Assembly: GCA_964187785.1 (NCBI GenBank)
Contig: OZ076409.1
Span: 36,954,001-37,018,000, forward strand
Length of the DNA: 64,000 bases
Direction of reading: 5' to 3'
DNA from: Amphiscolops sp. MND2022
Taxonomy: Eukaryota
The position numbers were made by a program, and so were the translations under genes. Positions 1 to 47,081 of this stretch are shown one piece after another. Under the pieces are notes generated by a model. That model worked only from the letters and a program-made list of their open reading frames with translations, was not told the DNA's origin and made no database searches. Numbering within the stretch: position 1 is the first letter of the stretch; each line of letters opens with the position of its first letter.

Positions 1-146
1 CATGTTCTCTGATATAGGGCATCTTCTTTTCATCTTATTTTGTGAATTTTCGGTGTTTTGCATGTTTCTGTTTTAAGTTTACGGCATCGTGTGTTTTCAT
101 GTGCGCGTTGTTTCCGTAATTTCATCTTTTAATGGGTTTTCCCCAT
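1..146 (+). repeat. Partial copy of the 712-1316 LTR (direct repeat of 1172-1317), cut by the window start
   Basis: 1-146 reads identically to 1172-1317 (catgttctctgatatagggc...gggttttccccat), then the copies diverge. Confidence 0.9.
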
Positions 147-572
147 CAAATTACAATTGATGTGACTTCGGACAGTGCGAGCTCTGCGGTCAAGATTCTG
201 CGAGCATGTGATAGTGTGTCTGCACAGCGGTTGTTCAGGTTTCTAATGTGCCTGAACGAGAGTCCGTTATTTCCACTGAGGACTGTTTGCAATCGCGTGG
301 GCCAATTGCAAAGTGACATCACGACCAGCGTGTGTTCGAGTGTGTTGAGCTTTCTCAAGGCTCATTGTATACGGACCTACGAGAGTGTAAGCGGGCCCCT
401 ATTGGAAGAATTATCGGAAGCATTTGGGCAATTTACGACCCTGTCTGATGTGTCTGAAGACTTGTTATGGGATGATGTCGGTGTTGTGGCTGCAGAAGAT
501 TATCGCCAATCTTTATATGAATTAATGGGATTCACCGGAGAGGGAGAACGTGCTCCGAGTCCGGAAATTTGA
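147..572 (+). CDS. Unknown ORF (probably a C-terminal part) upstream of the PPT of a plus-strand LTR element; possible retrotransposon accessory protein
   Basis: About 140 open codons with protein-like composition, GC-richer than flanks. The ATG at 132 lies inside the LTR copy and is probably not the real start. No domain recognised. Confidence 0.45.
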   Translation, partial: QITIDVTSDSASSAVKILRACDSVSAQRLFRFLMCLNESPLFPLRTVCNRVGQLQSDITTSVCSSVLSFLKAHCIRTYESVSGPLLEELSEAFGQFTTLSDVSEDLLWDDVGVVAAEDYRQSLYELMGFTGEGERAPSPEI

Positions 573-697
573 ACATTGTAGCGTGTTGGATTTTTGATTG
601 TTGTTTATTTTCATGTTGTATATTAGAATTAGTGATTGTATTATGCTGTAGTATAACCTGATGGGTGATCAATTCAATGTGTCACTGCTAGTGGTGT

Positions 698-1316
698 GGG
701 GGGGGGGAAACTGTTGCGGCGGAAAAGTCGGCGGCAGGTATATTTACAAAAAAACTATTTGGCATCCGTTATTGTTTTTCTCTTGAGATACTAGTGATTG
801 ATATAATAGGTAGGAGAGTTTTATGATTGAACAAATGCGACTAGTGGGTCACGTCCGTCAGTGTTTTTTAAATTGCATTTGTCATCGCTTTTGCATCGCC
901 TTTTCTTTGTCACACTTCTCAGATATGTTGTCTCACGTTGATCATCGTTATGACATCGCGTCTGGTCGTAGGTAGTTCATCGTTGTTTTCGTTTTTGATT
1001 TTTCATCTCATTTTCATCACAATTTCCTCAGTCGACCGAGTGACGTCGCGAAAACTGTTTTCTCATCTTTTTTACATCGTTCGTTGTGTGAAAATAATTG
1101 CATGTTGTTACATGTGTTTTTCTACAACGTTCATCGTTTTTTCATCGCGAGTTTAAATTCTGACATTTTCACATGTTCTCTGATATAGGGCATCTTCTTT
1201 TCATCTTATTTTGTGAATTTTCGGTGTTTTGCATGTTTCTGTTTTAAGTTTACGGCATCGTGTGTTTTCATGTGCGCGTTGTTTCCGTAATTTCATCTTT
1301 TAATGGGTTTTCCCCA
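698..1316 (+). mobile_element. Polypurine tract (698-710) plus 3' LTR of a plus-strand LTR retrotransposon
   Basis: G10-AAA-C followed by TGTTGCGG at 712. The duplicated part ends at ...TTCCCCA (1316); an alternative end is ...TTGGACA (1385). Confidence 0.65.
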
Positions 1317-2616
1317 TTATTTTACTTGTCGCGTTGTTTTCGTTGGAACTTCCAATAAGTTCATTTTCGTTCGTTGATTTGGACAGGGCTTTGTCGTCAC
1401 AAAGCCCCTACAAAACTAACTGAGAATCCACTAGCCGCTGGATAACCAACGCAGCTAGCTTCATCCGAAAATGGTTGTGAGCTCCCCGCCTCAACCAACC
1501 AGCACTCTTTTCAGAGAAATGCCAGCCAGCACGAAGAAATGATTTCGGTCTTTTGCGAGGCTATTTTAATTATTCTAATCGGATGTTGTTAGGAGTTGCT
1601 CTTTCCATTGTTTCAATTTGTGTTAATCTTGAAATTCCCACTACGTTGCATGAGTTTTAGTAAGATACATGTTTCTTCGATTGTATGGTTCGATGTGAGT
1701 TTGCATCGGTTATATGTGAATTGCATAAATTATCTCTTTCGTTATAGAAGGATACATGCGTTTTTCATTGATATTATGTTCGTTTAGGTACATGTAATTT
1801 GGAAGTGTCTGTTTACCAACGTTACGTCATTCAGTTGTAAGGCGTGTATGTGTTTACATGTAATGGTCATTTAGCTGATTTGAATGAGTTATGTTGTTAT
1901 CTTGCATGAAAATCATCGCCTGCTCATCCTTTTGTTCGTACCAAGGTGTTGTGGTAGAACGCTGACTTATTAATTATTGTTTGGATGGTGTTTCCCATCA
2001 CAACGACATCTTTTGTGAGTAGTTTTCTTTTGTATTTTAAATTGGACTGAGTTCATCGTTCTTTCATCCTCTAACCGATCTAGAGTTTTGTGTTAGTCGG
2101 ACTATGAATTCAGTCTTGAGTTGATGGTAAATCCCATCGCGAATACATCCTTTTAACTGTTTCCCGTGTTTGCAAGGTATTTTTGATTGAGTTCATCGCT
2201 ATTTCATCCTCTATTCGAGCTAGAGTATTATGATAGCATGAACGTGACTGCATTAGCGTTCTGATGGTATTTCCCATCTCAAACGCATCGCTATTAAGTA
2301 ATGCATGTTTGTAAGAAGTTATTTTGCTAAAATCATCACTTTTTCATCTCTCGTTTGGGTTATATGAATTTTCATGCAAGTTCATCCTATTTTCATCTTT
2401 GATTTTTTATCATTTGGTTTTTGAGGTTTTTCATCGTTATTCATCCGTTTTACATCGTATTTCGTTTTGATGCGTTTTTTCATGTGATTTTTAGTGACTG
2501 TTCATCCATTTTACATCTTCATGTTCATTTTAACTTGAAATTGCATGTAGTTTGTTCGTTTTTGTGACTTGTTCATCCTTGACACATCGTGTGTTGGGAA
2601 ATGTTGTTTTTCTTGT

Positions 2617-5235
2617 CTAAATCGTTACGTCTACGTTGTTGGTCTTTCTCAGTGCATTTCTAGCGAAAGTAATCTCATGAATGAGGAAATCAGGATATGT
2701 TTTCGGTGTAGGGTTCTCGCGTAACCTGTACCTACTCTGATTGTTTCTAGACGGTCTAGAACTAATCCTTTCCTCATTTTCAGTTTGCGTGTTTGTCTGT
2801 TGTGATCGATTTTCGTGTTGTTCGTCTCTCAGAGGTAATCTTATCCTGCTTTCATCGCGTGGGGGCGGTAGAATAATTTCCTCTTGCGTTCCAAATCTAA
2901 CTGTAGGTGGTCTAAAGACATTGTGGTCAGTTTCTACTTGCTGATAGTCTATTCTCGTGGTTATTTCTGGTGAAATTGCTTGTGGGCTGTGTCGTTCTTG
3001 TACTTGTGGAACTATTTCTACTGAAGGCTCTTCTTCGACTAAGTCTTGATCTAGATTGTCATTCTCATTCTGATCTACTTCGTCGTTTGTCGGAATATTC
3101 GAGTCAAATTTGTCTGTGTCTTCAAACCTTTCAGTGTCTGGGTAAAGATGTTTGGACACGTTGATGTCATCAATCGGAAATTCCGGTTTGAACAACCTCC
3201 GTCGCATTCTGTGTACGCACTGAGTCTGGTGTGTGCCTACTTTGCGGATGAAGTAGTTGCTATCGGATAGCACTTTCACCACCTTGTACGGTCCTTTCCA
3301 ATGGAAAGTTTTAAACCCTTCCTTGCTTCGCTGAGAGTCGTACTTAGGGTCTAGTAGGAACATGAATTCATTCACCTTCAGTGGCTGCGCTTGTGCTTTT
3401 CGATCATAGTACATTTTGTACTTGTGATAGGCGGAGATGATGTTGTCTAGATTGTCTCTGAAGATGAAGTTCATTTTGTCTAGAATCTCATTCACGTCCT
3501 TGCACTTTGTTTCAGCCGGCTTGTTTGCGTTTCGAAATTGCTGGTCTAGTGGGTTGTACGGTATTCTGCCATGAAAAATTTCAGTTGGTGAACATTTCAG
3601 TGAGTCGTGGTAAGTTGTGTTATGGGCCATGATTGCTATGTCGACATAGCGGTCCCATTGTGGTCTGTCTGCGTTTACACTAATTTTAATGATCTTTTTC
3701 AGATTCGCGTGCGTTCTCTCGACCATGCCTATTGTCTGTGCGTGTTTTATCGTGGCGTGGGAGATGTGAATATCAGCCGTTTTCGCGATTTCAGACAGAA
3801 GTTCAGCCGTAAACGCCGTGCCCTTGTCCGTCAGAATGTGTTTTGGCACATAAGCGTGTTTCGTGAAGATCGACAGTAATCCTCTGACTACGGAGTGCGT
3901 GTCAGGTCTCTTCAGCGGAACGGCGAACAGGTAGCGTGAAAAAACGTCAACAGCCGTCAGAATGTGCGTAAACCCGTTCGACGCCGGGAGTGGACCGACA
4001 AAATCTATTTCCAACAGGTCTTCTGGTCCGTCGCACGGGTCGTAGATTTTCTGTAACGGTGGACGTAGTTGCAGTTCTTTTACGCTTTTAGATTTCATGC
4101 AGTTTTCACATCCGTCTAGTACCTTTTGGACTTTACAAGCTAAGTTTGGGGAGTAATATCTTTTACGAAGTTCACACAACATTTTCTTCAAACCAGGGTG
4201 TCCTTGTACCGGGCTGTTATGCAGAGTCCTGATTATTTTCAAGATACAGTCTTCAGGAACGACTAACTGTTTGTGAGACTCCAGTCCCGTGTGATCAAAA
4301 AACTGTCTGTACAAGACACCGTTCACGACCTGTAAGCGTTTACGATTTTTGTGCAGCTTTTGAAAATCCTGCATACTAACTGGGTGTTGCAAAATTTCAG
4401 AACCTTCTAAAAATCTAATCATTTTTTGAATGACCCAGTTAGTTTTTTGAATCTGAATTAGATCGATCCCCTCAGCGGGGCTAACCTGACTCATTACCGG
4501 GTTTGATAATGATACTTTACTGATGAATTGCGTGAGCTGTATCGGCTCGTCCACATCTGTGAGGCGGTACGTCAGATGGTTGCCAATCGCGAATTCATCT
4601 GAGGCCGCTGTTCTCTCACAAATGGTGAACTTCATCCTTTTCCCATCGTCATGAGCCACATCAGTGCCAGGTGCCAAGTTCATCTCTTTGACATCCTTCT
4701 GGCGTTTGCATCTGAGTGGTTCACTTATGGGAAAGTAGTCAGGCTCGTCTTCTTCCTGTTTCGGTGTTCTGGAAGCGATGTCGATCTCGATTCTGTGAAT
4801 GGGAATAGTATCAGTCAGTTTTAAATGGACACGGTCTTCAGGTCTAATCTCAAGGCGAGATAAGTAATCCGCAGCGGGAGTTTCAACTCCTGGTACATGT
4901 GCTAATAGAAAATTGAACTGAAGCGTTTGATCACAAAAATTCCAAAATGAAGGCGGGATATGCTTCGCCTGAAAAAATCTGGTTAAGGCTTTATTGTCAG
5001 TCATAACAATGATGGGTTTTTTCGCACCCCACAAAATGTGGCCAAATTCATCAAATGCAAAATGCATTGCTAAAAACTCTTTGGCATACATTGTTAGAGA
5101 CATCTGGCGTCCCTGAAATTTCTTAGAGCCAAAGGCAACGGGGGCGTATGTTTGTTTGGCTGACGGGTCAGCATAATCCTCAATTAACAAAACATAGCCG
5201 GCAGCGTGTTCGCTGGCGTCACACATGGTTACCAA
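2617..5235 (-). pseudogene. pol: pol 3' part: RNase H plus DDE integrase with GPY/F motif and long low-complexity tail
   Basis: CDASEHAAGYVL, KEFLAM, TDNKAL, ADYLSR (RNase H); HNSPVQGH..CENC (HHCC); IDFVG, TDKGTAF, MVERTH (DDE); WKGPYKV. Frameshifted from RT near 5230. Confidence 0.92.
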
Positions 5236-6197
5236 TTGTATATCAGGTATGGCATTTTCAGAGACACTTTTGTTGCTTTTAACAGACTTTCGTTAATTTC
5301 AAAAATAGCGTCTTTATGTTGTTGGCTCAGTTTGAAAGGGACGTTTTTCTTGATCAGTTCCTGTAAACAGCAAGTTTTATCAGCTAAACGGGGAATATAT
5401 GATCTGTAAAAGTTTACAAAACCAAGGTAACGTTGCAACGATTTCACTGAGTTGGGGGGTTTCAACTTGCTCAAGTAGTCTGTTACGCGTTTTTCAATGG
5501 GAGCAATACCGGTGCTAGAAATGGTTTTGCCCAAGTACTCAATTTGCTTTTGTCCAAATTCACATTTACTCATGCTAAGTTTGAGACCAGCTTTGTTCAA
5601 CTGCTGAAAAACAAGTTCAAGGTTATTAATCAGTTCTTCAGGAGTGTGTGCTGCAATTCCAATGTCATCAACCTATTGTGCACACCGGTCCGCTTTGACC
5701 AAGGGGTCCAAATACTCACGGACTACACTTGTGAATGCTGACAAAGAACGATTAAGACCCTGTGCCAGACGTAAGAATGCAAAAGTTCTAGAACCAAAAT
5801 TAAACGATAACAGTTGGACTGACTGCTCATCGGCCATTGGGAAGCAATGGTAGGCCTGGGAACAATCAAGTTTGCAAAAGTACTTTTTCCCGGCCATGTG
5901 TTGGGCAGCGTCAGCAATTGCAGTTACGGGATGATTGTGCTCTCCGTGATCGTTTTTGATCAGATGGTTTATTCTTCTCAAGTCAATTAAAATCCTCAAT
6001 TTACCATTAGGTTTACGTTGAGCAAATATCGTTGACGAGTATTTACTATGAGGCAATGTAGTTATTATCCCGTACTCTTGCTTTAGAGCTAACTCCACGA
6101 GCAAATCGTCCTTCAAATTTGTCGGAGTCGGGAGACTTTGTGAATAAACTGGTTCTTGATGTTGTGGGGTTAACTTAACTTTAAAATCAGTATTCAT
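5229..6197 (-). pseudogene. pol: pol: reverse transcriptase with premature stop in the YVDD motif
   Basis: GKLRILIDLRRIN, YFCKLDCSQAY, RLAQGL, then CAA TAG GTT GAT GAC (Q*VDD, stop at 5673-5675), KCEFG..IEYLG, LQRYLGFVNFYR. Confidence 0.92.
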
Positions 6198-7709
6198 GCC
6201 AATATGCCAATATCAAAACGATGTCTAGCAAAAATGGAGTTGTACTTTACCAGCAAGTCCTCTACCTGTAACTGTTGAGACGGAGTAAGAAGTGAGTCGT
6301 CCCAGTTGAAGTTCTTCAGGAAGTTCATCCGTTGTTCATCGGATTGGGACGGGTCAAGCTTCTCGAGTTCTCGCAGTGCCAGAATCTCATCATAGATTCG
6401 TCGCTCAATTGCGTTGAGTTTGTTTGGGTCACTGCACGTCTCTGGAGTTGAGTACCACTTTGTTGACTTCATGCCAGGGTTCACGAACAATTGGTTGATC
6501 ACTGCTTCCGCCTCGTTTGGGTACTTGGTGATCAAGTTCAAGTGTTCCACTGGCATGGGCGTGATGTTGGCCGCCTGATGTGGTGTCGGTATGCGAAAGT
6601 GTGCCAGAGTGGTGTTGGCATCAAGTGTGAATGTGTGGTTGTTCGGATTGGTGACCTGGATTGTCGTCTTTCCCTCATCTAGGTCAACCAAAGCTGGGGA
6701 AACAAGCAAACACGTCTTTCGCATGAAGGCAGGCGAACCCTCAACTGTACCAGTTGTAAGTGAGATGTCCGCGTCGCTGTGGACCTGTATCATCACTTGA
6801 TGTAGAGGAGGGATCACTGTTCTATTACTGGAACACAAATTGATTAAACCAGTCTTAAATTTGTTGTTCTTTTGCTGTCTAACTTGCATGGACATCATGT
6901 GATTGGGGAAGTGGACGAGGTGGTTTTTGATGTCCAAATTGACTGAGTACTTTTCAAAAAAGGACATTCCAATTAAAATTGTTCCCATTGTTGGAAGGAT
7001 CAGGAACGTTTCTTCAAAAACTTTTCCAGCAACGTAAAATCTAAGTAAGACTTGTTTACGCATTGGGACTAAGTTTCCATTGGCTATTTGTATTTTGAAG
7101 TTTGGAGGGGGTAGTTTTTGAAGGATGGCTTCTGGATGAGCCGTGGTTATTTTTCGTAATTCTGCTTCAGACATTGCGCTTTGAATTGCGCCTGTGTCTA
7201 AAAGAGCGTGATTTTCGTATTTGTCAAACTGAAGAGGGACATAAAGCATTTTTTCTTTTTTATTTAAATGTAAAGTGGGACTGAGAATGAATTTCTGTTT
7301 TATTTGCATGTTTTTCAGCTTTCGAACTGTTAATACTACTCTGTGTTGCATGTTTTTCAATACTAAGCCGTGTGTCGTTAGTCGTGTGAAGAGTCGAGTC
7401 ATCTTGAAGATGGTTGGTGTCCATCTCTTTGGCATCATCCACCTGCCTCATGGTGTTGTGTTGCCAGTTCATCTCATGTTCATCGTTGATTTCGGCGAGT
7501 GGGGAAAAGCGGCTGCCGTTGTGTTGACGTGCATTTCCCATCGCTTTTTCATCGTTGGAAAATCTTCGCTGATAGACGTCGTCAGCTTTTGGTCGTTTGT
7601 CCAGTGAAGGCTGCCATTTCTTCATTGGACGGTTGTGTGTAGTCGGTTGAGTCGAAAGTCGTGTGTCGCGCGTGGTATTTCTAGCGGGCGGAAATCGTGG
7701 CTGAATCAA
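6194..7709 (-). pseudogene. pol: pol 5' part: gag-pol linker and aspartic protease (frameshifted)
   Basis: ALLDTGA and ILIGMSFF retropepsin motifs. Overlapping ORFs 7260-7709 and 6194-7438 imply a frameshift. Confidence 0.88.
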
Positions 7710-9204
7710 AAACCCTGATTAATGTCTTCATCAGAGTAGCTTATCTGTTCCTCTTCGTCAGCAACTGCTTGCATCGGGTTCATTGGTCTTTGTTGTCGTT
7801 TTAAGTCCTGTCTTATAGCCTTATTGTGAATTCGTGGCATAAGGGATCTTGCCATATGCAGAGCTATTTTCTTTGGGAATGCGTCGTCTGCAGTCTCTTG
7901 CTGAGTGGCCTGTGTAGCCACAAATCTGACAAACCAGCTTGGGATTGTACTTCGGTTTGTCTGGGTCGACTGCTTTCTTCATCGGAATTGCATCTTCCTT
8001 CTTGATGCCATTTGCTTCGTCACGTTGGCGGGCGCGACATTCCGTTTTGCGGTGACCTGTCTTTCCGCAGTAGAAGCATTGTCCCTCGAATCGTTTTCGT
8101 TCAGTTGGTTGGGTTGTCGTCGTCGTTGCTGTTTTGGTTGTTTCATTGTTCGTTGGAACAGAGGAGGTGACTGCGTTGAATGATTGAATTGTTGTAGGCG
8201 GTGCTGCATACTGCTGGTATTGATACTTTCGCATCAAGTATGTCTTGATTTCTTCTGGTGAACTTTCCTCCTTGTTGGCCATAGTAAGTTCTTGTTGTAT
8301 TTCGACCGGAAGCTTGCTGAACAAGATTATTTTTATGATTTTATCCGCTTCATCTCCAAAGGCTTGTTTCGCAATCTTTTTCAAGTTCTTGAGGAAGTCG
8401 CTGAATGTTTCTGTTGTGGGATCGTAACGGGCTTGATCCCACTTGTAACGAGCCACTTCTTTGAGATCCTCTTTCGCGAATTCTTTTCTGAACAGGTCTA
8501 GCACATCTTTCAGCGTTGTCAGTGGCGTTATTTGGATCGATGGACCAATACTCGATCGCTTCATCTCTCAAAAGGCTTTGAAAGAAATGAAGTTTGTTCT
8601 CCTCAGTTATTTTATTCGCTAACGGGCTGAGGTGGTTGAGGAGAAGGTGTTCAAATTCCACGAATTTGTCTTTTTGTCCTCTGAAATTCGGTACGTGTGT
8701 TTGCAGTAGTTTTGTATTTGTGGTAGTGCTTTTTATCCGTTGCGGGATCGTCTCCATGGCGTTCAACAGCCGTTCTTTGTTGCTTCTGGGAGTTGATTCG
8801 CCTTCTTCGTCTGTGTCGTCGTCTTGATATCGTCGGAAGTTTGTGAAGCTGGATGACGGGCGGGCGGGGCGGGTTTCTGTAACTCCTGTCACCATGTCGA
8901 ACCCACGCTGTTGGGGGGGCTTTGAAGGACCTTTCGAACTGGATGGCTGTACTTCGCCATTACTTTTGTTTACAATTGCCATCATTAAGTCCTTCAGTTG
9001 ACTAAATTCATGATGTAACTCACTAATCCTTCGTTCGTAATTTTCTTTTATTTCAGACAACTGGGAAGAGATGTCAGAATCATCGTTGGTATCAGAATCG
9101 TTAGAGTTTGCTTGAGTCATGTTCAAATCCACGGGAGAATCTATTTCTGACGAGGAATCAATAATTCTGCCGCTTCTGAGTACTGTTCCTTGGTTTTGAC
9201 TCAT
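7706..9204 (-). pseudogene. gag: gag with two CCHC zinc knuckles, broken by two frameshifts
   Basis: ORFs 8350-9204, 7821-8564 and 7706-7921 join into one gag. CFYCGKTGHRKTEC and CQICGYTGHSARDC; capsid-like VPNFRG...LLRDEAIEYW. Confidence 0.88.
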
Positions 9205-11855
9205 ATAAACAAATGAAAATGATTTATGAGTGAAGACTGAATTTCTGAGATGTTTTACGGATGTATTTTGTTATTTCATCGTTGGTTGCAATATCTCGAA
9301 TTCACTAATCTTGAATTGAGATGATTTAGAGATGAAGTCTACAAAGGAAATGAGTATCTAATAAAGAAGGTAAATCAAAGAAGCAATTAAAAGAAGTTCA
9401 TCCAAGTTTCATCGTAAAAATAGATTCGCTGGAAGTTTATTCAGAAGAGTCAAATTATCGTTGTTAGAGATGGATTGTAGATGTATTTTTGAAGGCTATG
9501 TAGGTTCTCAACTGTACGGTAACTAGTCGCAATCTCGGTCTGAGTAATCTCTAATGGCGGTTTAAACTACAGCAGTTCACGTGTCTTTTCAGGCTGGTAA
9601 GACGCTAAATCTCTTACCAGCCTTCCCTCATTGGTCAATGTCAGTTGGTGCTAATTGGTAAGTCACGTGACCGGTGTTGTGAACTGCCGCAGGGTGGCCA
9701 CACATCATGATGAATCTACATACTTGTAAATGGTGGTTAATCATCACTTTTACAGTGTCACAATTGCCTGCACATATCACAATGGTTTCTATAGCACAGG
9801 AGGTTAGTTCAAAGTATTCGATATCACACTAATTTCAAGTCAAATTAAAGTAGGATGCATTCCGAGATGGGAAAACGATGTTTTCCAGCTGATTCTAGCA
9901 CTAAAATTGGTGCTTTGCAATTAAGGATGGATATGTGATGAACACATGAGAATATTTGCTGATTTTCAAGTCTAGTTTTGTTTCTGGATGGAAAAGCGAT
10001 GAAATGTAGTTTTTCTCACTCGAAAATCAACACTATTCAAAGTAACGATGATCAAAGGATGAACTTCCTCCAAAAGTTGTCAATTTCCAGCACAAAAAAT
10101 GACGATGAATTTAGGATGAATTCACTCAATAATTCCAATGAAATAGCCAACTCTACTGTAAAATCAAATCAGCGATGAGTTTGGGATGAACTCCTCTAAT
10201 AATTCAGCAAAGCCTAGCACGAATCAAAATCAGGATGGTTTTTAGATGAACTTACTCAACAAAACAGATAATTCAGCACATTCACTCTTTTTAGGATGAA
10301 TTAGAGATGTACTTTCTCATTTCTTTCTGTTTACTGTCCATGCGATGAATTAGATATGCGTTATCGTCTCTAAGAAATGAGGAGCACATTTGGAGTTACT
10401 AAATGAAATACTGCGATGAATTTAAGATGAAATAATCAAGTCTAGTCCCATGAAATCCGCTGATGGATTTGTGATAAGAATAAAGTATAAAGTCCCATAC
10501 TTTGTTCGTTCGCAATTCTTGGGGATGAAACTGCGATGAACTTTCTCATAAAAGCACCGGATGAATCCGCTGATGGACTCAGGTAAATCTCTAACTGAAT
10601 TTGGTTCACTACTAAATCCGCCGATAGATTAGCGATGAACTTTGTGAAAACGTCGTCACGACTACAAGCCCTGAGGCGTGGAGCTAGTAGAAGTTACACA
10701 TTTTATCATTTTTTTAATGTCTCTCGGTCCAGTCTGACCGGAAAACTTCTCTCCCTTGTCGTGACAAACCAATATTTTTTGAAATATAGCACATTCAAGG
10801 ACATTGGCAAGATCATTTATGCGGACACCGGAACTACAGCGCTCAGTATTAAGTAAATATATATAACTCAAACTCATGGGGGAATGGGGATTAAGTACAA
10901 GTAAAGTAGGGTTGCTCACAACCATGGCTCTTATTATATGACATCATTTTGCCCATATCTAAGTACATAAGACATAATATTTACATTACAGATATTTAGT
11001 AGATTATATTTCCATCATGCTGGCATGACAGCACGTATTTATGCTTTTCAGTCCCAGCCTCGCACAGACATCTAGAAAACTAGACAACTTGGCAAATTGG
11101 AGGTGGCAATTCTTTCTAGCAATCTTGTAGTATGAGGGCGAATATTGTTCTCGGAAAAATTAGTCCTCCTTTCCTTCCTTGGGCTTTTGGCACTGTTCGA
11201 CTGCATTAGAAACAAGTGTTCATTACATCCGATTGGAAATTTTGATGGCATTTGCTTGGAAAATTGTTTTTCGATTGCACCCTGTCGGATATGTTTGAGC
11301 ACTGTGACCGTTATAAGAAGGTTTGCAATAATCTTCAATGATTATATCTGAAAGACGTAGCTCTTCTTGAGTTTTCAACGAGCGTCATTTGGAACCTCTC
11401 CCAGTTTGTTTGTTGGTTCATGTCAATTGATCAATAAGTGTACTCGTGCAAATTTTGAAAGACATGACTAAGTTAGATATTTTTTGAAAAAACTTCAGAC
11501 GGAACTACTTTACTTTTTCCTTTTAAAATGCAGAGTAAAAAATTGCCGGTGAATCAGTTATTATAAACATACGACATGATTGCAATTTTAAGCTTCTTCG
11601 GCCATAAATGCAACTAATGCGAAATTTTTAACTGTAATTCCAAAATTTCATTAGCTGTTCATCAGCCCATTTCTTGAAACCTAGGTTTTGCAGTTCCATG
11701 TCCCAAGTGAGCTCATGAAATCTTGCAAAAAATTCGATAATAAAATAGCTATGATTTTGGGAGAATGTTGTTAAAGGTAACCTTTTTCTAATTTTTTTTT
11801 CATTGCAATAAATGTTTCAAACAAAAACCGATAGTTGGTGTCTCGAAAAAGGATA

Positions 11856-13302: not shown

Positions 13303-16300
13303 CTGAAACAGCATGTTTGTTAACGTCAGCAAAAAACCGCTTTTCGACGTTTTCTTCAGCGTTTCAAAATTTGAAAAGTGATTAGCCGCACTAAAAGTTA
13401 TAAAATGCTGCCAACAACCATGTGTTTTCTTCAACCCAGCTAAACGTCAAAAACGGTTAACAAATATTTTAGTGAATAGTCATCTAAATTATTTTGCTTT
13501 TTAAGTGTTAGTTAGTAGCAAGAAAACACTGAACTAGTCCCACGCCAATTTGTATTTCTTTTTTTGAAAACTATATCTTGGTTCAAAAAATGGCGGCGGC
13601 AAAATTTTTGAAAAATGCGTATAGCTTGAAGACGGCAAATTTTGGCTAAACGTGGCAAAAATAAAAAGGTTAGCAGGTTGAACAGACTTTGTTGCTGCGT
13701 GACTCAATTGACAGAAACCAAGGTATATATGTGCTTCCATCATTTTAATGAAAGCGTAAGATTGTTCAAAATCATCGGTAATTCGATTTTCCCTGCATCA
13801 TATTTAATTTTCATATGCAATATTTAACTACCTTGATTGCTTTCACATCTTGCTGTTTTTAAGAGCATCGGTTAAAAATTTACGATGACATTTCAAGAAA
13901 TTGTTCAAACATGGATGTAATCTTGCTTTTAGTTAAATAACATTGCCCGGAAATCTATATACTGAATGTTGCACTCAAAAGCCAATAAAGCAAGTCACTA
14001 CGTGATTTATACCATAAGGCATAGGCACCACAGGTTTGAAAGCATCTAAAATTTTTTAGTTAGTGAAATTCAGCCGTCTTTTATTAGAAGGGGTACATTT
14101 TTTGAAATCATAGCAATTATTTTGCCCACGTGAACAAAAGCTGAACATGATCTAGCCTGGGGTTGGAAAGTGGGCCTGTCATCAGACCGTGTTGTTAATT
14201 TACGCTCGCTGGAGTCAAGGCAAATATTTAATGAGGTTGTAAATTGGAGGGGAAGCAAAGGATAAGGGATAAGACGAGAGTGGAAGAGAACTAACAAGAA
14301 CCAGTCGATGGTGTAAATCAGAGAAATCTGCTCGGTTGGCAACCCCACTGCTGTGAAGACGAGGATCATGGTCACCAGTCCTGCAGAGGGAATGCTAGCA
14401 GCTCCCACGCTGGCCGCAATACTCGTGATGCTGAAAAACAAAGCATTCAAATGGGCTATGATATTTCCATGGCCTTAAACAATGATGGAGAGGAATCTAA
14501 GAAATCAAAAATAGAACAATTTTCTTGTTTGGTTAGAGTCAAGCTCGCGAGTTGGCTACTAGCTCAAGTTTCAAATTCATGTCAATTTGCATTTTTTCAG
14601 TTTTCAAGGCTTTTTGTTTGACTGGATCTTGAAGAGGATGATTCAGCCGATATTGTTAGATGCCGTCCAATTGCGTCGAAGTTTTTTTTAAAAGAGACAC
14701 AAAAAGACTCGAATATGACCCAATAGAGTTTAGGGAAAGAACTCATGGAAAAACTGGTGTTCTTAAAAATTCAGAAGCCAGTGATTTCTTTCAATCTGAA
14801 ACCTTGATCTAACAAAAACTTTATGGCAACATATAATACGCATGTAGCTGGGGCATACTTTTCGATTCAAACCGAATCCACATAAAAATGTGATGTGATA
14901 ATTTGAATTAGCTGAGTTCCTCCCATAAATATTGAGAAAGAAGTTAATCAAGGACAGCCAGTCACTGGTCAGCCGTTCGTGGTAAATATTTTCAACTGGA
15001 AATGGTGGCCCATGGGTGAGACTTGGGTGAGTTATTGGTATTACCACCGAAAGGTTACTCTGGGCTGTAAACCCCAATTAGTAATCCAAAGATATATTTT
15101 CATTTCATAAATTGAAATGTTCATCTTGGAACGAGCTTTTTCTTGCGAACTCAAGTAATCATAAATGTTTTCTGGACTTCATCTCGTTTTTAAACAGAGC
15201 TCAAAACTGTTCAATAACTTTGCCCCTAAGTTACCCTAAATGAAAAAAAACTATAACAAGACATGTAAATTCAAATTTCAAATTTTCTTGGTGTATAAAC
15301 ACTTAGTTTTTTTCCAAATCTTAATTAGTCCTGCAATGGAATGGATGGTATCTAAATCAAAACTCCCGCTCTGAGCAGTGAAGTATTTTCCGCCCCAAAC
15401 CGTTCTACAACGACATGGATTTGAAGCTCAAGACTAGCCAATGCTCAATGAAAACGCAAAGAAGTTCGAAGAAAAAAAGTTTTGATTCATAGTAGCCTAT
15501 TTTTAAAGCAAAGTCTTAATTTATTAAATACGCTAAGTTCCTAATTATTTTGTGGTTGAACTATGTGGATACCAGTACCTAACACCAAATTATCAGTCGG
15601 CGCTTTTCGTAAAGAAAGAGCATTTACAGTCATGGCTTTTCGTTAGTATTTTTCCGATAAGGTTTTTTCCAATAAGGTTTCCAAAGGTTTTTCAAATTTT
15701 CAAGTAACTTCTCACTGCCACTTGACCTAGTGGTTATCGCGGATTTCCTGAAGTGTTAGGAGCAAGGGTACGTGGGTCAAGTCTCGCGCTCAACCAAAAA
15801 AGTTTTTAGGTTGGAACAGTAGGAGAACACCAAAGGGTCTTCTTAGAATTTTTGGGTATTTTTTGGGTACGAAAGTACCTCGTTTTTCATGAGAAACAAC
15901 AGCGTTTTGCAAGCATAGTGCCACTTACAGACTTAATAAAAATTTTTTGTAAAATTTTCCGAAAACATTTTTGAAGACATGTTTTTTTTCGCAATTTTTG
16001 GTTTTTGATGTTTTCTGCGAAAGAAACAGGTTTCCCGAGTCTTGAGGTTGGTTGGCTTCTTTGTTGTTTTTTGGTACTGTGCAACTGATGAGTTTTCTGA
16101 ATGATTGTGGAAATTACCTCTTTTCAGCTTTTTTCGCCTCTGCGTGTTATCTGGTCGAAGGGTACCCTTCACTTTTAAAGTTGATTTTGAGAATTTCGGA
16201 CTGAGAAAAAGTAGTTTTGCGAGCTGAAACTTTTTCCGGCACCATGGGATTTTTCCGAAAATTCTTTAAAAAAGGATTTCTTGTTTTCCTTGTTGAGGAA

Positions 16301-19300
16301 AAAGTGGTTTCCGAATCCCAGGCGTATTTTTCAGGTTTTTTTGGCACTGAGAAAAAACGTCAGTGTTTGAAACTAGCGTCATTTGCAAGTTTAGGAAACT
16401 TGAGCGTGGTGCCAACTTGGGCCGGTCCCGCTTGTTATATTATTGCACATAACGTCACCAGAAGTGTCAAAAACCTGGGAAAAATTGATATTTTTGACAT
16501 CTTTGGGGTCAATTTGACTCACTTTTCTAACATGAAATTTCAGATATCTCTTCTAAAAAGCCTAATGGAAACCGAGTTGAGTTGTTGTTGAATGTTTACA
16601 CCATTCTAACCCACGAAATAGCTGGAAAACGTTACGAAAAAATTGCAACAAAACGTCCAAAGTTTCTTTACTTTCAAGTCATTCTCAGGTTGTCTACCTA
16701 CATGGGGAGCTGCAAGATACATTATTTCAGGAAGGCGTACTCCATACCTGAAGACTTTGCTTGGAGTTTTTTGAATAAATACTTGGCGAAAAAGTTTGAA
16801 AAAACAAACTTGTCCGATATCTTTTCGAAGCACTACCGGTAGCTAAACGTTTCAATCCTGTTCCAATGGGCTTTCGGATTGACGTAAATTTTCGAGAAAG
16901 GTCCAAAATTGGGATTATGTTGTTGAAATTTTGACAAATTTTGGATTTGAATATCTTTGTTGTCAAATTCGAGGAACTTTACCTCACTTTCTTTCACAAA
17001 GTTTGGTTTAAATACCCCATTGTTTCAACGTTCAGGTTAATGGATGTTCTATTCTCTGAACTGTTTGAGGTTTGAACAATAATTGGGAACAATTCGTCAA
17101 AAAGCATTCTTAATTAATGTTTTTTATTGTTGGATTTGAGGTGCTTTTGAGGCCAACTCCGTCAAAAAACTGCAGTTAGTATTTCAAAAACGCCTACTGG
17201 ATACCCAAATTAGTCGCTGCTGAGTTTTTTCATTACGATAGATGTCCCGCAAAAGTGGAAAGTGATCACTTGGTGTAAATTGTTTTTTGGGTAAAATAGT
17301 CAATTACTGTAAATTTGTCAAAGACTGTAGTAATCCACTCGTGTAGTGGTGCAGCAAAGTGTAATATGAATGCGGTGAATTCCAGTCCGAATGCGTAGTT
17401 AGTAAATGGTGTAAAACAGTCAAAATTTGAAAGCTAATTTAGTAAGATGTAAGTTAGTCAATGTTTGATTAAATTTCACTTTTATTGAGTCTCCTTTTAC
17501 AAAACTACCGAAAAGTGTAAATTAATCAAAATTGACTAGTTTACGGCAATTTAATAATTACTTCAAACACATCATTTTACATTGAATAGTTGTTTGGCGT
17601 TAAATTACTTTGACTAATTTACACAACAACTTTGACTGAATTACGCGATTAAACAATTACCGCATACGTACATTACCACATACATACATGCAGTAAAGTT
17701 TACATTGGATGACACATGCACGCAAAAGATTTCTAGTCATTCAGTGTAATTAACTAAATATGTCAATTTAGAGTTTAATGATTTGAACTAATTGCTTACT
17801 GATCATGCCAGTAAGCAAAATGTTTAAACATAAACTGGACCATGTGTTCATTTTGTGTGTTCATGGCATGGACTTGGAGGAAGCTAGTCTTTTGGCAGTA
17901 GAAAGTAGTCGCAAATCACGATAAACGAAATGCTAGAATTGTCCAAAAACGGTTGCCTACTCGGAAAAAATTATCGAGAAACTATTAACTTTTTCGAAAA
18001 ATGACTTTTTTCTGGTGAAAGATGAATTGTATCAGTTCATCGTCTTAAAGACAATTTTGACCTAGAAACATTTTGACCTGTGATCAACCGGTCAACAGTC
18101 GTGCAGCCAGATAAAATCATAGAATACTATAGCTTGTGAGGGTCTGGTATTTCAACATTACAAACAGAACACTGATCAAACCAATATCCTAGAGGGGACA
18201 TTCGCTGAACACACTGATTATAGTTTGATTAAGGTATGGACTTAATCATACAAACGAAAAAAAAATTAAAGTGTTGCTATTAACAACTATCATGTTGAAG
18301 CCTTGTGGATTGGAACGTTTAGTTGAAGCACAAAATTAGCCGCATAATAAACTACCGAACGTAAATAACATCAAGGTAAAAACAAAAAATGCCCAAAACT
18401 GAGTGCGGGCTGGTGTTAGGTGGGGATACGGTTCGTTCAATCAGTCAAAACAAGGATTAAAACAAGAGGATAAAACTAGGTAGAAATAAAGCAAGGCATT
18501 ATGGATAAAAATTGGACTCATCAAAAACAAGTCTGAAAGGGCCTATGTCAATCCCCTTTTGAGGCTTCCAAGCACGAAGGCTTCTCAATAAGCATAGGAA
18601 CTAAGCCTCAAATGCTCCAGAAACGCGCATTTTCAGAAAAGTTTAGAGGGCTATCTTATGGCTGTGAAAATAATCGAAGAACACTTTTAGAAAATTTCAC
18701 CAACATCACACTGTCGAAACTGGGACTGCACATTATTTTTAAAATAGGCTCCCTAGGCGCAAGAGACATCGGAAAAATGTCTAATGCACTGATGCTTGCA
18801 ACCTCTGCATGATATCACAGACAAGCGTGAAAACGCTAAAGTTTTTCAGTCAGTAATATCGTGTCTCAATTTCGAGGAAAGTGAAGAGAAAACGTACTGA
18901 TAGAAAAACGGAAAATGCTTTTAAATTCCGGAATAGGATGAGTTTAAACTCATAAATCTTTGGCTCGCCTACGAACTTCGAGGCACAAGTCATTTGAGAA
19001 ATTTATATTAATTTTTCAATAATTATTTGGCTACGAATTGTACGAAATCATCTGCAGGGCATCGTTTTTTACGAATTCGTTATGAAGATTCAATAGAAAT
19101 ACCGTGAAACTTGAATTTAACCGACAATAAATTAAGGCAATAAATTAATTGGTCACTTCAATGATAATGTCTCGGGAAAGGTCATCGGTATAAAATTCCG
19201 AATTTTATACCGATGACCTTCCCCGAGACGTTATCATTGAAGTGACTGATTAATATATTGCTCTAATTTATTCGCGATGTTCGTTTAACTTTGTTCACGA

Positions 19301-28300: not shown

Positions 28301-31300
28301 TGGGAACTTGCTTGTGGGGATATGTATCGTAATGTTGAACAGTTCTTTGCAATGAAGTTGCTCAAAAATTTTTCAAAAAAGTCCATAAAAACGTAAAAAT
28401 TTAAAAATTCGCATTTTTTGGGTCATTCTGAGGAAAGTTTTATCCACGAAAAGTGCAAAGTTGAAAAGCAAACTGCGGACCTAGTTAAACAATCTGGTGC
28501 TTTTCCAAGCTTTTACCTCGCCAAAATTTTCTAATCTCAAATAAAATATCTTTCAAAATGTCAGAAATTAGGAAATTTTTGACATTTTCGACTTTTTGTC
28601 GCCAATTTCGAATCTAACCGAAGTCTGCAAACTTGTCCTAAAAGACAATTGGGTTTTGAGTTCAGTCGGTGGAGAACGTTTTCCAACATTCTGACTCCAA
28701 ATCAATTCAGAAAGTACACAGAGGTTGCATAAAAATGTGAATACGATCGATAATTTAGGATTGATTTGGAGTCATTCTGAAGTGTTTTTGAAGCAAAACT
28801 GCACTGCTGTCGTGAAAAAGTATGCTGCCTTTCTTGCTCTTTCACTTTTGAACGCTTTGGAACTTCTAGCTCATAAAATCTTTCGTGAATTTTACTGACA
28901 TTGCTTCAAAAACGACAAAAATTTGAAAGTTTTGGATTTTTGGAAACTTTCAGGGTCGTTTTGATGCTTTTTGTTTTATTTCCATTTGTTTTTATCGTCT
29001 GACAAAAGCCTTGTGAAACAACATGTTCTTCCATTGGTAAGTATTTCTCACATTTTAATCCACGAAGTCTAGAGAAAATTGGACAAAAATTGAATAAAAA
29101 TGTTGAAAATCGGAAAGTTTTGGTAAAATTGACTTTTTCTGCATCAGACCGAGACCATATTCATCTGAATAACAAAGCATTTATACCATCACTAAACCTA
29201 CTGGACAACAATATCTTTCCTTCTTGATCTGGTTTCAACATTCCAGTCCACAAATTCGTTCAAAAGTTTGAAAGTAAAAAAACTTTGGATTTTTGGTCAT
29301 TTTCGGTTTAACTTTGAAACGTTTTCCGTTTTTCATCGGCAAATCCCACTGGACAACGATTGATTGACTTCTTGAACAACTTCTTTGCGTTTTCAACATT
29401 CTAATCCGCGACCTTTATCAAAAATTCGACAAAAATTGCATAAAAACGTTAAAAATCGGAAATTTCGAATTTTTGTTATCTTCGGGGTCATTTCGGATCT
29501 TTATGGGATCATTTTCGTAATTCCCAAAAAGGGCCAAAAATCTCTACAAATACATATCACACGAAGCTAAATTTATATTAGTTGAATTCTGTGGGTGACA
29601 CCCTTCAATTTGAATATAAATTTGGTGCTTGGCAAATTTTATAAAAAAAAACAATTGATTTAAATGTTTTACTTTACCATATGGAATATGGGCGGAAAAT
29701 AAAAAAAAAGAAAAGACTGTGAAAGAGACATCAAAAGACAGCAAAAAAATACACTGAATTGCCACGCAAATGTATTTTGATTTGCTGCTTGAATTCCGGT
29801 CGAAATGAAGAATTTTTTAGATCTTAAAAGTTGAAGGTTTTAATCAATACTACCAGGCTCCTGGGGGAGTGTTGAGAATTGGAAGCGGCGGTGGGTTCGA
29901 ATCCCGCTTGGTGACAAAATATGTTCTGTTTGCATTTTGAGCTTTACTGAGAACAAAGCTGAAAGAACGCTCGAAAAAAAACAATTTTTTAACGTTTTTG
30001 CCAAATTATATCAAGTGTTGCCTACAAAAAGGTGCGAATTCGAGCCTAATCAAAGTGAAATTTTTGTATGTTTTCAAATTGAACTATTTTGGTACCATTA
30101 ATTCGTATACCGTTTTTAACAATGCCATACTTCCCGAATATTGTATTTTTTTTTTCGAATTGAAATAGTGTTCAAAGCATTTCAAGTATAGCTTGGACAA
30201 CATGAAAGTTCAAAACCCCCGAGCAATTGACGATATTACAGAACGAATTTATGTTTGGTTCCATATATTTTCACCCGGTCCTTAAAAAGATTTTCTCCAG
30301 TCCGGTTCTTCACTTTAAGCCCTTTAAAGCTTACCCAAACATTTCAAAGTGTCTTGCCTTCGAGACTTTCACATTTTCACTGTCTCATCTTCGCGTTTTT
30401 TTTTCTTTTTGCATTTTTCAGAACACTTTTATTTCATGGTTTTATGGACATTAAAGAAAGTTTATTTCCCCGATTCCGAACGAGCAGTTCTGCTTTTCTA
30501 GGTAGGCGCTCTTTTTTGTTACTATCTCGCCACAGCAAGCTATGGTACCATATTTGCAGCCAAATGGTCGAGCAATGGTCGGTTTGCTGAAAGTCACAAA
30601 GACTTGACTGCTAACTGTTTTCAATAGTCAGTTATGAATTGTAAATTTTCCATCGTCAATTATGAAACAGGTTTTCGTGTCCAAAATCCCAAGAGCAATT
30701 TAAATATATTTGGCACTATGAGATTGTTGAAAATACAGTAATAACACAATTCAAATTCACTAAATGTTTTACATGTATAAATCTAAGGCCTCGTTAAGGC
30801 TGAGTAGTAAAAGGACAAGAGTTTTAAGACGATTTTCGTTACTTTTCGAAACTACATTATACTGCCTTAATTTTATTTCTTTATCAAATGTATCCAATTT
30901 TTCCTAAAGGTATCTTGCAACAGAATACGAACAAATCCGCAGTACCACTGCACTTCTTGAATTGCAATGATAATCAGTGGTAAATTAGGCGGTAGTAAGT
31001 AGACTTTTTCTAACCAGATGGTAATCATGTTTCCCAAGTTGAGGTCAATGTCGTTCAGTTGAGCAATGAAGATGGCGGTGAGCGACTCGTACAGAGCAGT
31101 TCCGTCCATGTTCACAGTGGCCCCGATCGGGATCACGAAACGAGTCACTCTGGCATCCAGTTTATTCTTCTCCTCCAGACAGAAGAAAGTCAACGGCAGA
31201 GTTGCAGTGCTGAGAAACAAATGGAACATCTCAACATAAATTAATCACAAATTGAATCTTCGAGAGTTTTGTGGTTTAAGAATAAAAATAATTGTGAAGG

Positions 31301-44543: not shown

Positions 44544-44569
44544 TTCGAGGCAACTTGAGGCATTTTTTG

Positions 44570-46662: not shown

Positions 46663-46778
46663 CGTTTTGCAATCATAGTTGGTCACTTTTCGTTTTTTTT
46701 TCGGTACTGTTAGATATTGATCAATATCTAACAGTACCGAAAAAAAAACGAAAAGTGACCAACTATGATTGCAAAACG
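46663..46778. repeat. Perfect 116-bp palindrome
   Basis: Centre gatattga|tcaatatc between 46720 and 46721. Confidence 0.95.
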
Positions 46779-46779
46779 T

Positions 46780-47081
46780 AGAAAATCAATTGTCTACAGC
46801 ATTTTGATCTCCGAATTACAAAAATTAGACCCAAAAACTGATTGGTATTCAAAACATTACAGAAAAAGAGCAGATAACGAGTAAACTAAAGAATTGAGAT
46901 TTGTAGCCGAGTAGACGACGTGAATGGATCGATCCATTCACGTCGTCTACTCGGCTCCAAATCTCAATTCTTTAGTTTACTCGTTATCTGCTCTTTTTCT
47001 GTAATGTTTTGAATACCAATCAGTTTTTGGGTCTAATTTTTGTAATTCGGAGATCAAAATGCTGTAGACAATTGATTTTCT
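46780..47081. repeat. 302-bp palindrome, one mismatch
   Basis: Centre aatggatc|gatccatt between 46930 and 46931. Confidence 0.95.

Follow-up and report, generated by a model that had tools for sequence, protein, structure and literature searches.

The window, by which we mean the whole 64-kb stretch of DNA that was analysed, contains at its left end a Ty3/Gypsy retrotransposon. Its gag and pol lie in that order on the minus strand and gave Pfam matches to zf-CCHC, gag-asp_proteas (below the cut-off), RVT_1, RT_RNaseH, Integrase_H2C2 and rve. The element carries many copies of the direct repeat CATC-N7-CATC (GATG-N7-GATG on the other strand), called a dyad here. The features are as follows.

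1–154, no strand assigned: duplicate of 1172–1325, 98% identical, carrying a dyad at 20.
147–572, plus strand: 3′ half of an orphan ORF, 5′-truncated in the window copy; convergent with pol, multi-copy, and the candidate dyad binder.
698–710, plus strand: G10-AAA run, then TGTTGC; resembles a polypurine tract and LTR start.
883–1205, plus strand: array A, six exact CATC dyads with gaps of 60, 61, 60, 68 and 59.
1386–1407, no strand assigned: hairpin with a perfect 9-bp stem, containing GTCGTCAC; GTCGT(C/G)AC-type words also occur at 10652 and 10758.
1914–2588, plus strand: array B, eleven exact CATC dyads, including the decayed repeat at 1904–2323.
2617–7718, minus strand: pol of Ty3/Gypsy type (protease, RT, RNase H, integrase), broken in the window copy into pieces in several frames.
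4585–4695, plus strand: dyads of the RNase H-integrase linker, exact at 4633 and 4681 and with one mismatch at 4585, 48 bp apart.
6326–6340, plus strand: dyad of the protease-RT spacer, DEQRM, found only in the window element's subfamily.
7422–7553, plus strand: three exact dyads of the Gag-protease linker, gaps 48 and 69, reading DAKEM, DEHEM and DEKAM.
7821–9204, minus strand: gag, with its ATG at 9204 and two CCHC knuckles; the window copy is split between two frames.
7980: gag dyad between the CCHC knuckles, reading DAIPM.
9249–9483, no single strand: leader cluster, GATG dyads at 9249, 9320 and 9469 and an opposite-orientation CATC dyad at 9399.
9591–9623, no strand assigned: 5′ leader hairpin with a perfect 12-bp stem.
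9866–10637, minus strand: array C, putative 5′ LTR, ten exact GATG dyads and three with one mismatch, in the orientation opposite to arrays A and B.
10756–10766, minus strand: where the element probably has its 5′ end; minus-strand sequence TGTCACGACAA, with TGTCAC at 10766.

The window pol is 78–93% identical, by segment, to that of the family member P0390. The sole element end seen in the window is the TGTCAC at 10766, a probable end that neither an LTR partner nor a target-site duplication confirms; no second LTR or paired copy was found within the 64 kb, and the element runs past the left edge. A first-pass annotation of this DNA had placed all of the GATG dyads from 9249 onward in a putative LTR. 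Those at 9249–9469 belong to the leader, a short way before the gag ATG (9204), and 9866–10637 remains a putative LTR with no partner copy in the window. The segment 1–154 marks a tandem duplication of 1171 bp, the junction of which falls within the orphan ORF at about 146/147, where ORF homology begins. The G-run at 698–710 probably marks a point where tandem duplications of the ORF join, rather than a polypurine tract and LTR start: P0318 starts with translated 661–702 joined to the next ORF copy. Identity with Troyka was set aside on that element's CG termini (PMC12440569), and no tRNA genes were found in the window.

Positions 1–10,700 contain 40 exact dyads (26 CATC and 14 GATG), of which 32 are in non-coding DNA and eight within gag-pol coding sequence. 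The excess over expectation claimed by the first-pass annotation was upheld, although its figure of about 37 was too low. All eleven of its CATC positions (1914, 1996, 2054, 2135, 2194, 2275, 2334, 2383, 2442, 2503 and 2574) and all thirteen of its GATG positions (9249, 9320, 9469, 9866, 9926, 9987, 10047, 10104, 10174, 10234, 10295, 10415 and 10524) are exact dyads, and its near-matches at 10344, 10462 and 10623 are dyads with one mismatch. The six-dyad array at 883–1191 and all of the coding-region dyads were missing from its list. The spacing is sharply defined: a spacer of 7 gave the 40 dyads, and every other spacer from 0 to 30 gave 0–3 same-strand pairs. When all tetramer-by-spacing pairs were ranked, CATC at 7 came first with 40, and the best unrelated pair reached 11. 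Shuffles of 1–10,770 that kept 2-, 4- or 6-mers (200 per class, 600 in all) gave means of 0.4, 1.4 and 1.4 dyads and maxima of 3, 5 and 5. Outside the element there were 2 dyads in 53 kb versus 1.0 expected.

One alternative is that the dyads are neutral leftovers of ancient tandem repeats and of slippage, template slipping between CATC copies having produced the 11-bp steps. Duplication has contributed in part to the arrays: part of array B (1904–2323) is a decayed repeat of three 140-bp copies, each unit consisting of two dyads and one inverted GATG half-site, and 1–154 copies 1172–1325. We nevertheless consider this origin very improbable. The 39 distinct dyad sites have 39 different spacers, and flank identity over 741 site pairs was 0.283 versus 0.264 for random pairs, which agrees with the earlier description of the flanks as mostly unrelated. 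TRF reported no tandem array over the dyad clusters. By these three results the arrays do not have the make-up of a simple tandem repeat or minisatellite, in which head-to-tail units resemble one another over their full length, and they do not resolve into one decayed tandem repeat, the repeat being limited to the triplication. Genuine tandem repeats look different. A search of viral contigs for a three-dyad pattern found 93 loci, the dyad-rich ones being homogeneous tandem repeats; 40 of the 93 had at least eight dyads, and none of these 40 had 80% distinct spacers. None of the 93 viral loci encodes a relative of Pol or of the orphan ORF.

Gaps between dyads fall into discrete classes, with means of 48.2, 59.8, 70.0 and 81.3 bp and a step of 10.9 ± 0.24 bp per class (slope); the gaps are thus quantised, and the clustering reported earlier is real. 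The accompanying claims, that the gaps are close to whole helical turns and that the dyads lie on one DNA face, found no support at 10.5 bp per turn. At that pitch the classes equal 4.6, 5.7, 6.7 and 7.75 turns, whole-turn phasing is rejected, and each next dyad lies about 3.5 bp short of in-phase; the classes approach whole turns only if the turn is about 10.0–10.2 bp. The step of 10.9 equals the half-site repeat of 11, and some adjacent gaps total about 120 (49 + 71), both of which fit the neutral origin. Speaking against slippage as the source of the 11-bp steps, no remnant half-sites were detected at −11 or +22 (0.77 and 0.69 of 4 bases matching a third CATC, with neighbouring offsets no lower).

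Within the decayed triplication, invariant columns made up 16/16 of CATC, 4/14 of the spacer and 43/112 of the other positions, a test that is partly circular in that the repeat itself was noticed via its dyads. The coding dyads are informative in another way. On the coding strand, 7/8 read D-[VADEG]-x-x-M, all in one frame; the readings at the RNase H-integrase linker are DGKRM, DVKEM and DEFAI. The cores of RT-RNase H and integrase, together about 2.3 kb by limits that we set, contain no dyad. P0390 and P0268, which represent two Pol subfamilies and are 77% identical over 1190 residues, have seven such motifs each versus 0.48 and 0.34 expected, and 0/500 shuffles reached seven. Five motifs are common to both, in linkers rich in indels and substitutions; other sites are private to one subfamily or the other.

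Full-length Pols of sister families, which are about 55% identical over RNase H-integrase, were without the dyad codon signature. The frequency of codon-compatible motifs per 1000 residues was 2.47 in 56 family proteins, 0.15 in 33 sister-family proteins and 0.11 in 88 distant proteins, these sets not being independent and consisting of copies that probably come from one genome or a few. Further, 24 of the 36 distinct D-x-x-x-M words of the family fit the GATG-N7-GATG codon rule, versus 18% expected. Family specificity of the dyad is thereby judged via protein sequence only. The earlier proposal of selection on the motif gains from both data sets, CATC columns being invariant in the triplication and the codon signature being kept and turned over between Pol subfamilies and absent in sister families. 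Against a neutral origin, isolated one-frame dyads occur in unrelated coding linkers and have been gained and lost between subfamilies, and in the triplication and the Pol subfamilies CATC is, in part, more conserved than its surroundings. To judge from these sequence comparisons, the dyads very probably form a selected binding lattice on double-stranded DNA. DNA rather than RNA is the likely target given the opposite orientations within one element and the dyad at 9399 amid opposite neighbours.

The orphan ORF is antisense to pol and lies, at a distance of 2 kb from the pol stop, in one continuous T-rich tract with it. It is a multi-copy family of about 310–370 residues, the form of about 310 having in addition a probable 5′ exon. 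The family has many subfamilies and distant members, the P0187, P0193 (367 residues), P0196 and P0198 types being distant subfamilies, and is conserved down to about 20–27% identity. Profiles of 37 and 20 members found no significant Pfam family; there was no match among PDB sequences, nothing at 0.9 or above in the Atlas, and no related locus in metagenome and viral contigs. Integrase searches likewise found no related locus in metagenome and viral contigs, and a single unrelated 25% match in genome contigs. The protein is acidic overall (pI 4.5–5.0), its basic part being residues 150–210 (12 K/R, 6 D/E). Compared with P0193 and P0217, P0288 and P0296 contain an insertion of 49 residues that points to an intron, as would suit an antisense gene.

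ORF copies may be linked to the family's Pol. Linkage was judged from the one window and from contigs matched by length, and on that basis 5/53 family-Pol contigs, versus 1/121 other-Pol contigs, appeared to carry an ORF copy too (Fisher p 0.01). Two of the co-occurring ORFs are 66–70% identical to the window ORF while their Pols are 88–89% identical, and in these cases ORF and Pol may be separate insertions. More generally, the orphan ORF and array A could belong to a separate plus-strand LTR element (purine tract 698–710, LTR from about 712) nested beside the Gypsy element, the motif being used by both. The G-run and the TGTTGC after it have the look of a polypurine tract with the start of an LTR, the Gypsy 3′ LTR was not found in the window, and 712–1500 gave no alignment to 9600–10780 above block-shuffled controls. 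We think such nesting improbable, and a plus-strand LTR at 712–1500 was judged the less likely assignment: A/T skew is negative throughout 1–3000 and through most of gag-pol, arrays A and B have the same orientation, the probable intron speaks against a sense-strand gene, and ORF copies co-occur with family Pol. Whether there are one or two elements is a question of anatomy, compatible with either kind of binder discussed below.

An AF2 model of the ORF protein was used in fold searches. The N-terminal domain of XerD came first (Z 5.7, rmsd 2.8 over 70 residues), model residues 134–210 being superposed on XerD 3–88, and two further tyrosine recombinases followed at Z 4.5 and 4.2; for helical bundles, Z 5.7 is under the tool's meaningful level, and it was tied with unrelated folds. 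The XerD likeness did not recur in a second, poor model (pLDDT 51). Both models exclude the probable first exon, and residues 209–313 are of low confidence. Foldseek against PDB and BFVD gave nothing at E 0.001, and a further comparison with PDB structures gave nothing above Z 4.5. Profile-profile comparison with 46 recombinases (hhalign) gave probabilities of 0.2–2.6%, with local scores of 15–17.5 versus up to 23 for shuffles. In the predicted structure residues 134–210 weakly resemble a tyrosine-recombinase DNA-binding bundle.

A model for the element can be built on what was observed directly: the dyads, the quantised gaps, the orientation flip between 5′ end and interior, the persistence of dyads in decayed repeats, the codon signature across subfamilies, and the convergent ORF. 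The dyads would be selected docking sites on double-stranded DNA, in the non-coding arms and in the gag-pol linkers. Each would seat two DNA-reading units, head to tail and one turn apart, over an A/T-rich spacer, and cooperation between neighbouring complexes would produce the quantised gaps. The orphan-ORF protein would be the binder, coating the integrated element and keeping it transcribed, with family-specific activation or escape from silencing as the outcome, as with VANC. That the element's own antisense protein binds the dyads in a VANC-like manner is the leading proposal, if a tentative one. The first-pass annotation had drawn the VANC analogy, which now has a concrete candidate binder in the element-linked orphan ORF, its binding role being a prediction. 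Rather unlikely, taken as a whole, is the fuller version, in which a recombinase DNA-binding domain gave rise to an antisense gene with an intron; its product would polymerise on a whole-element lattice that takes in codons of the polyprotein linkers, shield the family from silencing and explain its very high copy number.

The main rival is that the lattice recruits a host DNA-binding protein (a transcription factor, insulator or chromatin protein) and that the orphan ORF does something else. All of the motif-selection evidence fits a host protein equally well, retrotransposon UTRs of Drosophila are documented to contain arrays of sites for host factors (PMC7168160), and no recognised DNA-binding domain is present in the orphan protein, which is acidic. 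On the other hand, the dyad is at chance level in the 53 kb of flanking host DNA, and its signature is absent from the Pol of sister families that would face the same host factors. The literal motif was also not found in print, in a literature search that did not extend to subscription journals, Repbase entries or supplements; within the same limits, no paper was found, by title or start of abstract, that describes such a system. We regard a host binder as possible, and somewhat less so than the element's own protein.

The lattice might otherwise serve the replication cycle rather than transcription. The ORF product, integrase or Gag would then coat newly made cDNA, protecting it from autointegration or serving its nuclear import or choice of target; or else the motif would act on RNA in export or packaging, like CERV for Cer1. 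Sites do span the whole element and run in opposite directions at its two ends, like subterminal arrays, and there is a known case of an animal Gypsy accessory protein acting on genomic RNA (PMC10309623). The integrase core, however, is conventional and closely similar in sister families without dyads. The orientations are mixed, the repeat is fixed at 11 bases and the gap steps are the size of a turn, all of which speaks against single-stranded RNA as the target, and Rfam gave one chance match in the window and none above chance. A replication role is accordingly improbable, and a DNA lattice acting on the integrated element is preferred.

The coding-linker dyads with their codon signature across Pol subfamilies, and the convergent orphan ORF, are new in this analysis. 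Sequence-specific anti-silencing by a transposon's own protein is already established for the plant VANDAL elements, which are Mutator-like. The window element combines a candidate protein with a candidate site that is sharply defined. The dyad can also be read in Pol, as D-[VADEG]-x-x-M recurring in the linkers at steps of 16 codons, a case of a cis-element shaping polyprotein sequence that offers a way to find such systems from proteins alone. With 1482 members in the Pol cluster, the system may have a bearing on the size of the host genome. Even with a host factor as the binder, the array would be an unusually extensive recruited one.

Several known systems resemble parts of this one. Cer1 is likewise an animal Gypsy element with a novel accessory protein (a candidate one in the window element); its CERV is made from a spliced mRNA, supports Cer1 expression and acts on genomic RNA export (PMC10309623). 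The window ORF differs in being on the strand opposite to gag-pol, and the abstract describes no DNA motif lattice for CERV. The insulator of Drosophila gypsy is a reiterated, degenerate array inside a Gypsy element, with 12 Su(Hw) sites in one 350-bp array in the 5′ UTR, bound by a host protein (PMC7168160); binding in the window element is predicted, and its three arrays and coding sites extend over 10.6 kb in two orientations with a different motif. Mobile-element recombinase domains have been reused as DNA-binding regulators, as in the ALOG domain (PMC3537659). The modelled four-helix bundle of the ORF protein would resemble the ALOG and tyrosine-recombinase N-terminal domains. Unlike ALOG, no zinc-ribbon motifs are evident in the ORF alignment, and unlike tyrosine recombinases, the ORF has no detected catalytic domain and no significant sequence or profile match.

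Closer in layout is the plant Gypsy element Retand (Tat), whose antisense TRP28 ORFs have been proposed as DNA-binding regulators of the element; what antisense ORFs do in Gypsy elements is described as an open question (PMC11963269). Both elements have a long region from pol to the 3′ end with family-specific repeats and an antisense ORF of uncharacterised role, 147–572 in the window, provided that all is one element. Retand is reported only from flowering plants and has ordinary tandem arrays (PMC11963269), whereas the window ORF has no Pfam match and the window dyads are dispersed, have unrelated spacers and reach the 5′ end and coding sequence. For VANDAL/VANC of Arabidopsis, anti-silencing is described as acting through a family-specific short motif, a contiguous 9-mer found mainly outside coding regions (PMC5735166). 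VANDAL is a plant DNA transposon; the window element is an LTR retrotransposon with a bipartite 4+4 direct repeat and quantised gaps that also occurs in polyprotein linkers. The likeness is one of arrangement, a shared function being a proposal; the ORF profiles matched no Pfam family, and no homology to VANC came to light in these searches. In sum, the window element is like VANDAL/VANC in having dense, one-orientation arrays of a family motif in non-coding DNA, mostly non-coding here and with the signature absent from sister-family Pols, partly spread by tandem duplication and lying beside an accessory gene, which in the window is a candidate for being element-encoded (PMC5735166).

The dyads (CATC-N7-CATC, or GATG-N7-GATG on the other strand) lie in a Ty3/Gypsy retrotransposon with the following features.

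9204 to 2617, minus strand: Ty3/Gypsy gag-pol, split among several frames in this copy
10766, minus strand: probable 5' end of the element, reading TGTCAC
147-572, convergent with pol: 3' half of an uncharacterised ORF (the orphan ORF), interrupted by a 1171-bp duplication
883-1191: array A, CATC dyads
1914-2574: array B, CATC dyads
9866-10524: array C, GATG dyads
1904-2323: decayed three-copy 140-bp repeat that holds dyads
Further dyads: a leader cluster, eight coding sites and one duplicated site at 20

The second LTR is absent from the window, the element extending past the left edge, and the Pol type presumably recalls acoel flatworm elements. Exact matching over bases 1-10,700 gave 26 CATC-N7-CATC and 14 GATG-N7-GATG sites, not the total of about 37 in the first-pass annotation; its claim of an excess over chance held, as did 24/24 of its exact dyad coordinates, and its three near-matches were real. 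Spacer length 7 gave the only peak, with 0-3 same-strand pairs at each other length from 0 to 30, and shuffles preserving 2-, 4- or 6-mers averaged 0.4-1.4 dyads, with a maximum of 5 in 600. (CATC,7) ranked first among tetramer-spacing pairs in the element region, and the rest of the window (53 kb) held 2 dyads vs 1.0 expected. The site profile (n=39) was roughly (A/T)GTT-CATC-(not A)n(A/T)(A/T)(A/T)Tn-CATC-(not A), with an A/T-rich spacer, a soft upstream flank preference, and half-sites whose invariance is a consequence of how sites were selected. The array is real and far from random, and independent indications suggest that it is under selection; it is very probable that the dyads are a selected binding lattice.

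Other features were seen elsewhere in the window. Six loop-less near-perfect palindromes with arms of 38-293 bp (50831-51416, 46780-47081, 46663-46778, 41802-41955, 51868-52021 and 53367-53442) may have arisen as fold-back artefacts, through amplification or long-read sequencing, or be genuine palindromic insertions. A hAT-type transposase frame (DUF659, weak Dimer_Tnp_hAT) at 62783-64000 (minus strand) extends beyond the window end, and about 50 residues at 14070-14474 (minus strand) match the sodium:dicarboxylate symporter family and probably represent a single host-gene exon. Diverged copies of a dispersed repeat, built internally of 170-370-bp units, occupy 16530-17232, 28896-29706, 37596-40145 and 44563-45558, and satellites of the CCATGCATGG type and of 32-33 bp lie elsewhere.

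That the dyads are a neutral residue of repeats is very improbable. TRF reported no array over the dyad clusters, 39/39 spacers were distinct, and flank identity was 0.283 across 741 site pairs vs 0.264 in random pairs, in keeping with the variable spacers and mostly unrelated flanks first described. A plain tandem repeat is ruled out on these grounds, with the exception of 1904-2323. Invariant columns in that triplication were CATC 16/16, spacers 4/14 and remainder 43/112, so that CATC was better kept than its spacers, in a test that is partly circular. In every 140-bp unit an inverted half-site is conserved 12 bp upstream of the second dyad (1984-2010, 2123-2149, 2263-2289), and GATG-N8-CATC-N7-CATC is possibly a three-part site. 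Viral loci with the same pattern were homogeneous repeats; among 93 examined, 0/40 dyad-rich loci had 80% distinct spacers. In six loci of one giant-virus MAG (L042, L049, L062, L063, L068, L078), CATC-N7-CATC sites are clustered at irregular gaps and reuse the same spacers; searches there found no relative of Pol or the ORF.

The arrays had been described as helically phased. For exact dyads, the phase concentration of 28 within-cluster gaps of at most 125 bp was 0.76, above the value of 0.58 that bounds 99.9% of a uniform null. In the gap regression, clusters were picked by hand, four one-mismatch sites were included, and 99- and 149-bp gaps and every between-cluster gap were omitted; the 31 gaps left had class means of 48.2, 59.8, 70.0 and 81.3 bp and a slope of 10.9 +/- 0.24. 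The periodicity persisted without the four local-triplication gaps (0/20,000 draws from a smooth null) and without the modal 57-62 class (13 gaps, p 0.0001). At 10.5 bp per turn the classes equal 4.6, 5.7, 6.7 and 7.75 turns and, because these are non-integral, adjacent dyads do not share one face of relaxed DNA. The gaps come near whole turns only at 10.0-10.2 bp per turn, a pitch that would be consistent with wrapped or bent DNA. The gaps are quantised and periodic, as proposed, but the proposed single face finds no support at 10.5 bp.

Read in one frame, GATG-N7-GATG gives D-[VADEG]-x-x-M, and seven of the eight coding dyads encode it; the eighth, at 7124, is reversed and may be chance. These seven occupy the linkers that join Gag to protease and RNase H to integrase, the protease-RT spacer and the stretch separating the zinc knuckles, and none lies in the RT-RNase H and integrase core (about 2.3 kb, limits set by us). 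Given this codon signature, other copies could be tested through protein sequence without their DNA. The family Pols P0390 and P0268 represent two subfamilies that share 77% identity across 1190 residues; they have 7 motifs each (0.48 and 0.34 expected), five common to both and others private to each subfamily, and a 16-codon (48-bp) motif spacing is retained although the intervening residues diverge. No motif was found in the full-length sister-family Pols P0378, P0380 and P0028. Motifs per 1000 residues were 2.47 in the family (n=56 proteins), 0.15 in the sister set (n=33) and 0.11 in the distant set (n=88), and the codon rule fitted 24/36 distinct D-x-x-x-M words in the family (18% expected), 1/15 in the sister set and 7/23 in the distant set; these counts are not independent, since the copies are related and the 24 words reduce to about nine sites in variant form. 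P0055 (41% best hit only) was kept out of the family set for these counts and for contig co-occurrence. We infer from these protein sequences that the constraint acts on DNA and is specific to this Gypsy family. In sister-family Pols (the P0030 cluster and others), Q or H occupies position 2 of 5/15 distinct D-x-x-x-M words, a weak hint that the motif there may be a different one.

Word search found 43 relatives of the orphan ORF and profile search 83, reaching down to about 20-27% identity, with up to 72 members in single clusters. Relatives P0288 and P0296 carry a 49-residue insertion compared with P0193 and P0217, which suggests a first exon and an intron; in a set of 396 proteins the N-terminal match had E 0.003 and 0.03, and a retained intron would fit an antisense gene. 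A/T skew is negative throughout, starting at base 1 and continuing into pol. Contigs matching one of 132 sampled ORF contigs were 5/53 for family Pol vs 1/121 for other Pols (p 0.01; contigs identified by their length). Two points count against an ORF-Pol link: some of the co-occurring ORFs belong to other ORF subfamilies, and a separate element could have supplied the G-run at 698-710 as its purine tract. Multiple ORF copies share a contig of length 655992 (P0141, P0314, P0318, P0320) and another of length 35910 (P0347, P0354), and the P0318 N-terminus is the sequence after the ORF stop in the window, which suggests that the ORF tends to amplify in tandem.

Pfam and PDB sequence searches with the orphan protein gave nothing significant. 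Its predicted model is all-helical, confident over about residues 21-208 and poor thereafter. The top structural match was the XerD N-terminal DNA-binding domain, which covered residues 134-210 with 70 positions aligned at Z 5.7 and rmsd 2.8; a phage integrase and an archaeal Xer ranked lower, and these scores all fall inside the chance range for helical bundles. Profile comparisons with 46 recombinases were not significant; short profile matches share register with the XerD match, and the protein, acidic overall, is basic in residues 150-210 only. The modelled XerD likeness is a lead and not an assignment.

On the coding strand, dyads read CATC in 13/14 of the 5' region and GATG in 25/26 of the interior. 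This mixed orientation points to double-stranded DNA, and sites in both arms and coding linkers suggest that the integrated element is affected along its full length; that the lattice acts in the replication cycle is distinctly unlikely. The motif, lattice, orientation, conservation and neighbouring ORF were directly observed. We tentatively propose the element's own ORF as a putative binder that would act in transcription or against silencing, a reading that falls short of even odds. Two half-sites one turn apart would each take one DNA-reading unit, the pair facing the same way, contact between neighbouring complexes would quantise the gaps, and the dyads would act as double-stranded sites in a lattice affecting the integrated element as a whole. 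Binding by a host protein instead is somewhat doubtful; its known counterpart is the gypsy insulator (PMC7168160).

No paper with the literal motif was found among openly accessible articles; a family entry may exist in Repbase. CERV (PMC10309623) and ALOG (PMC3537659) offer precedents for an accessory protein and for a reused recombinase domain, respectively. The overall layout resembles that of plant Retand elements (PMC11963269). The analogy first drawn with VANDAL/VANC (PMC5735166) extends to the proposed working mode and to the uncharacterised candidate partner ORF adjoining the arrays; Pfam searches with the ORF showed no homology, and the element is a candidate member only.
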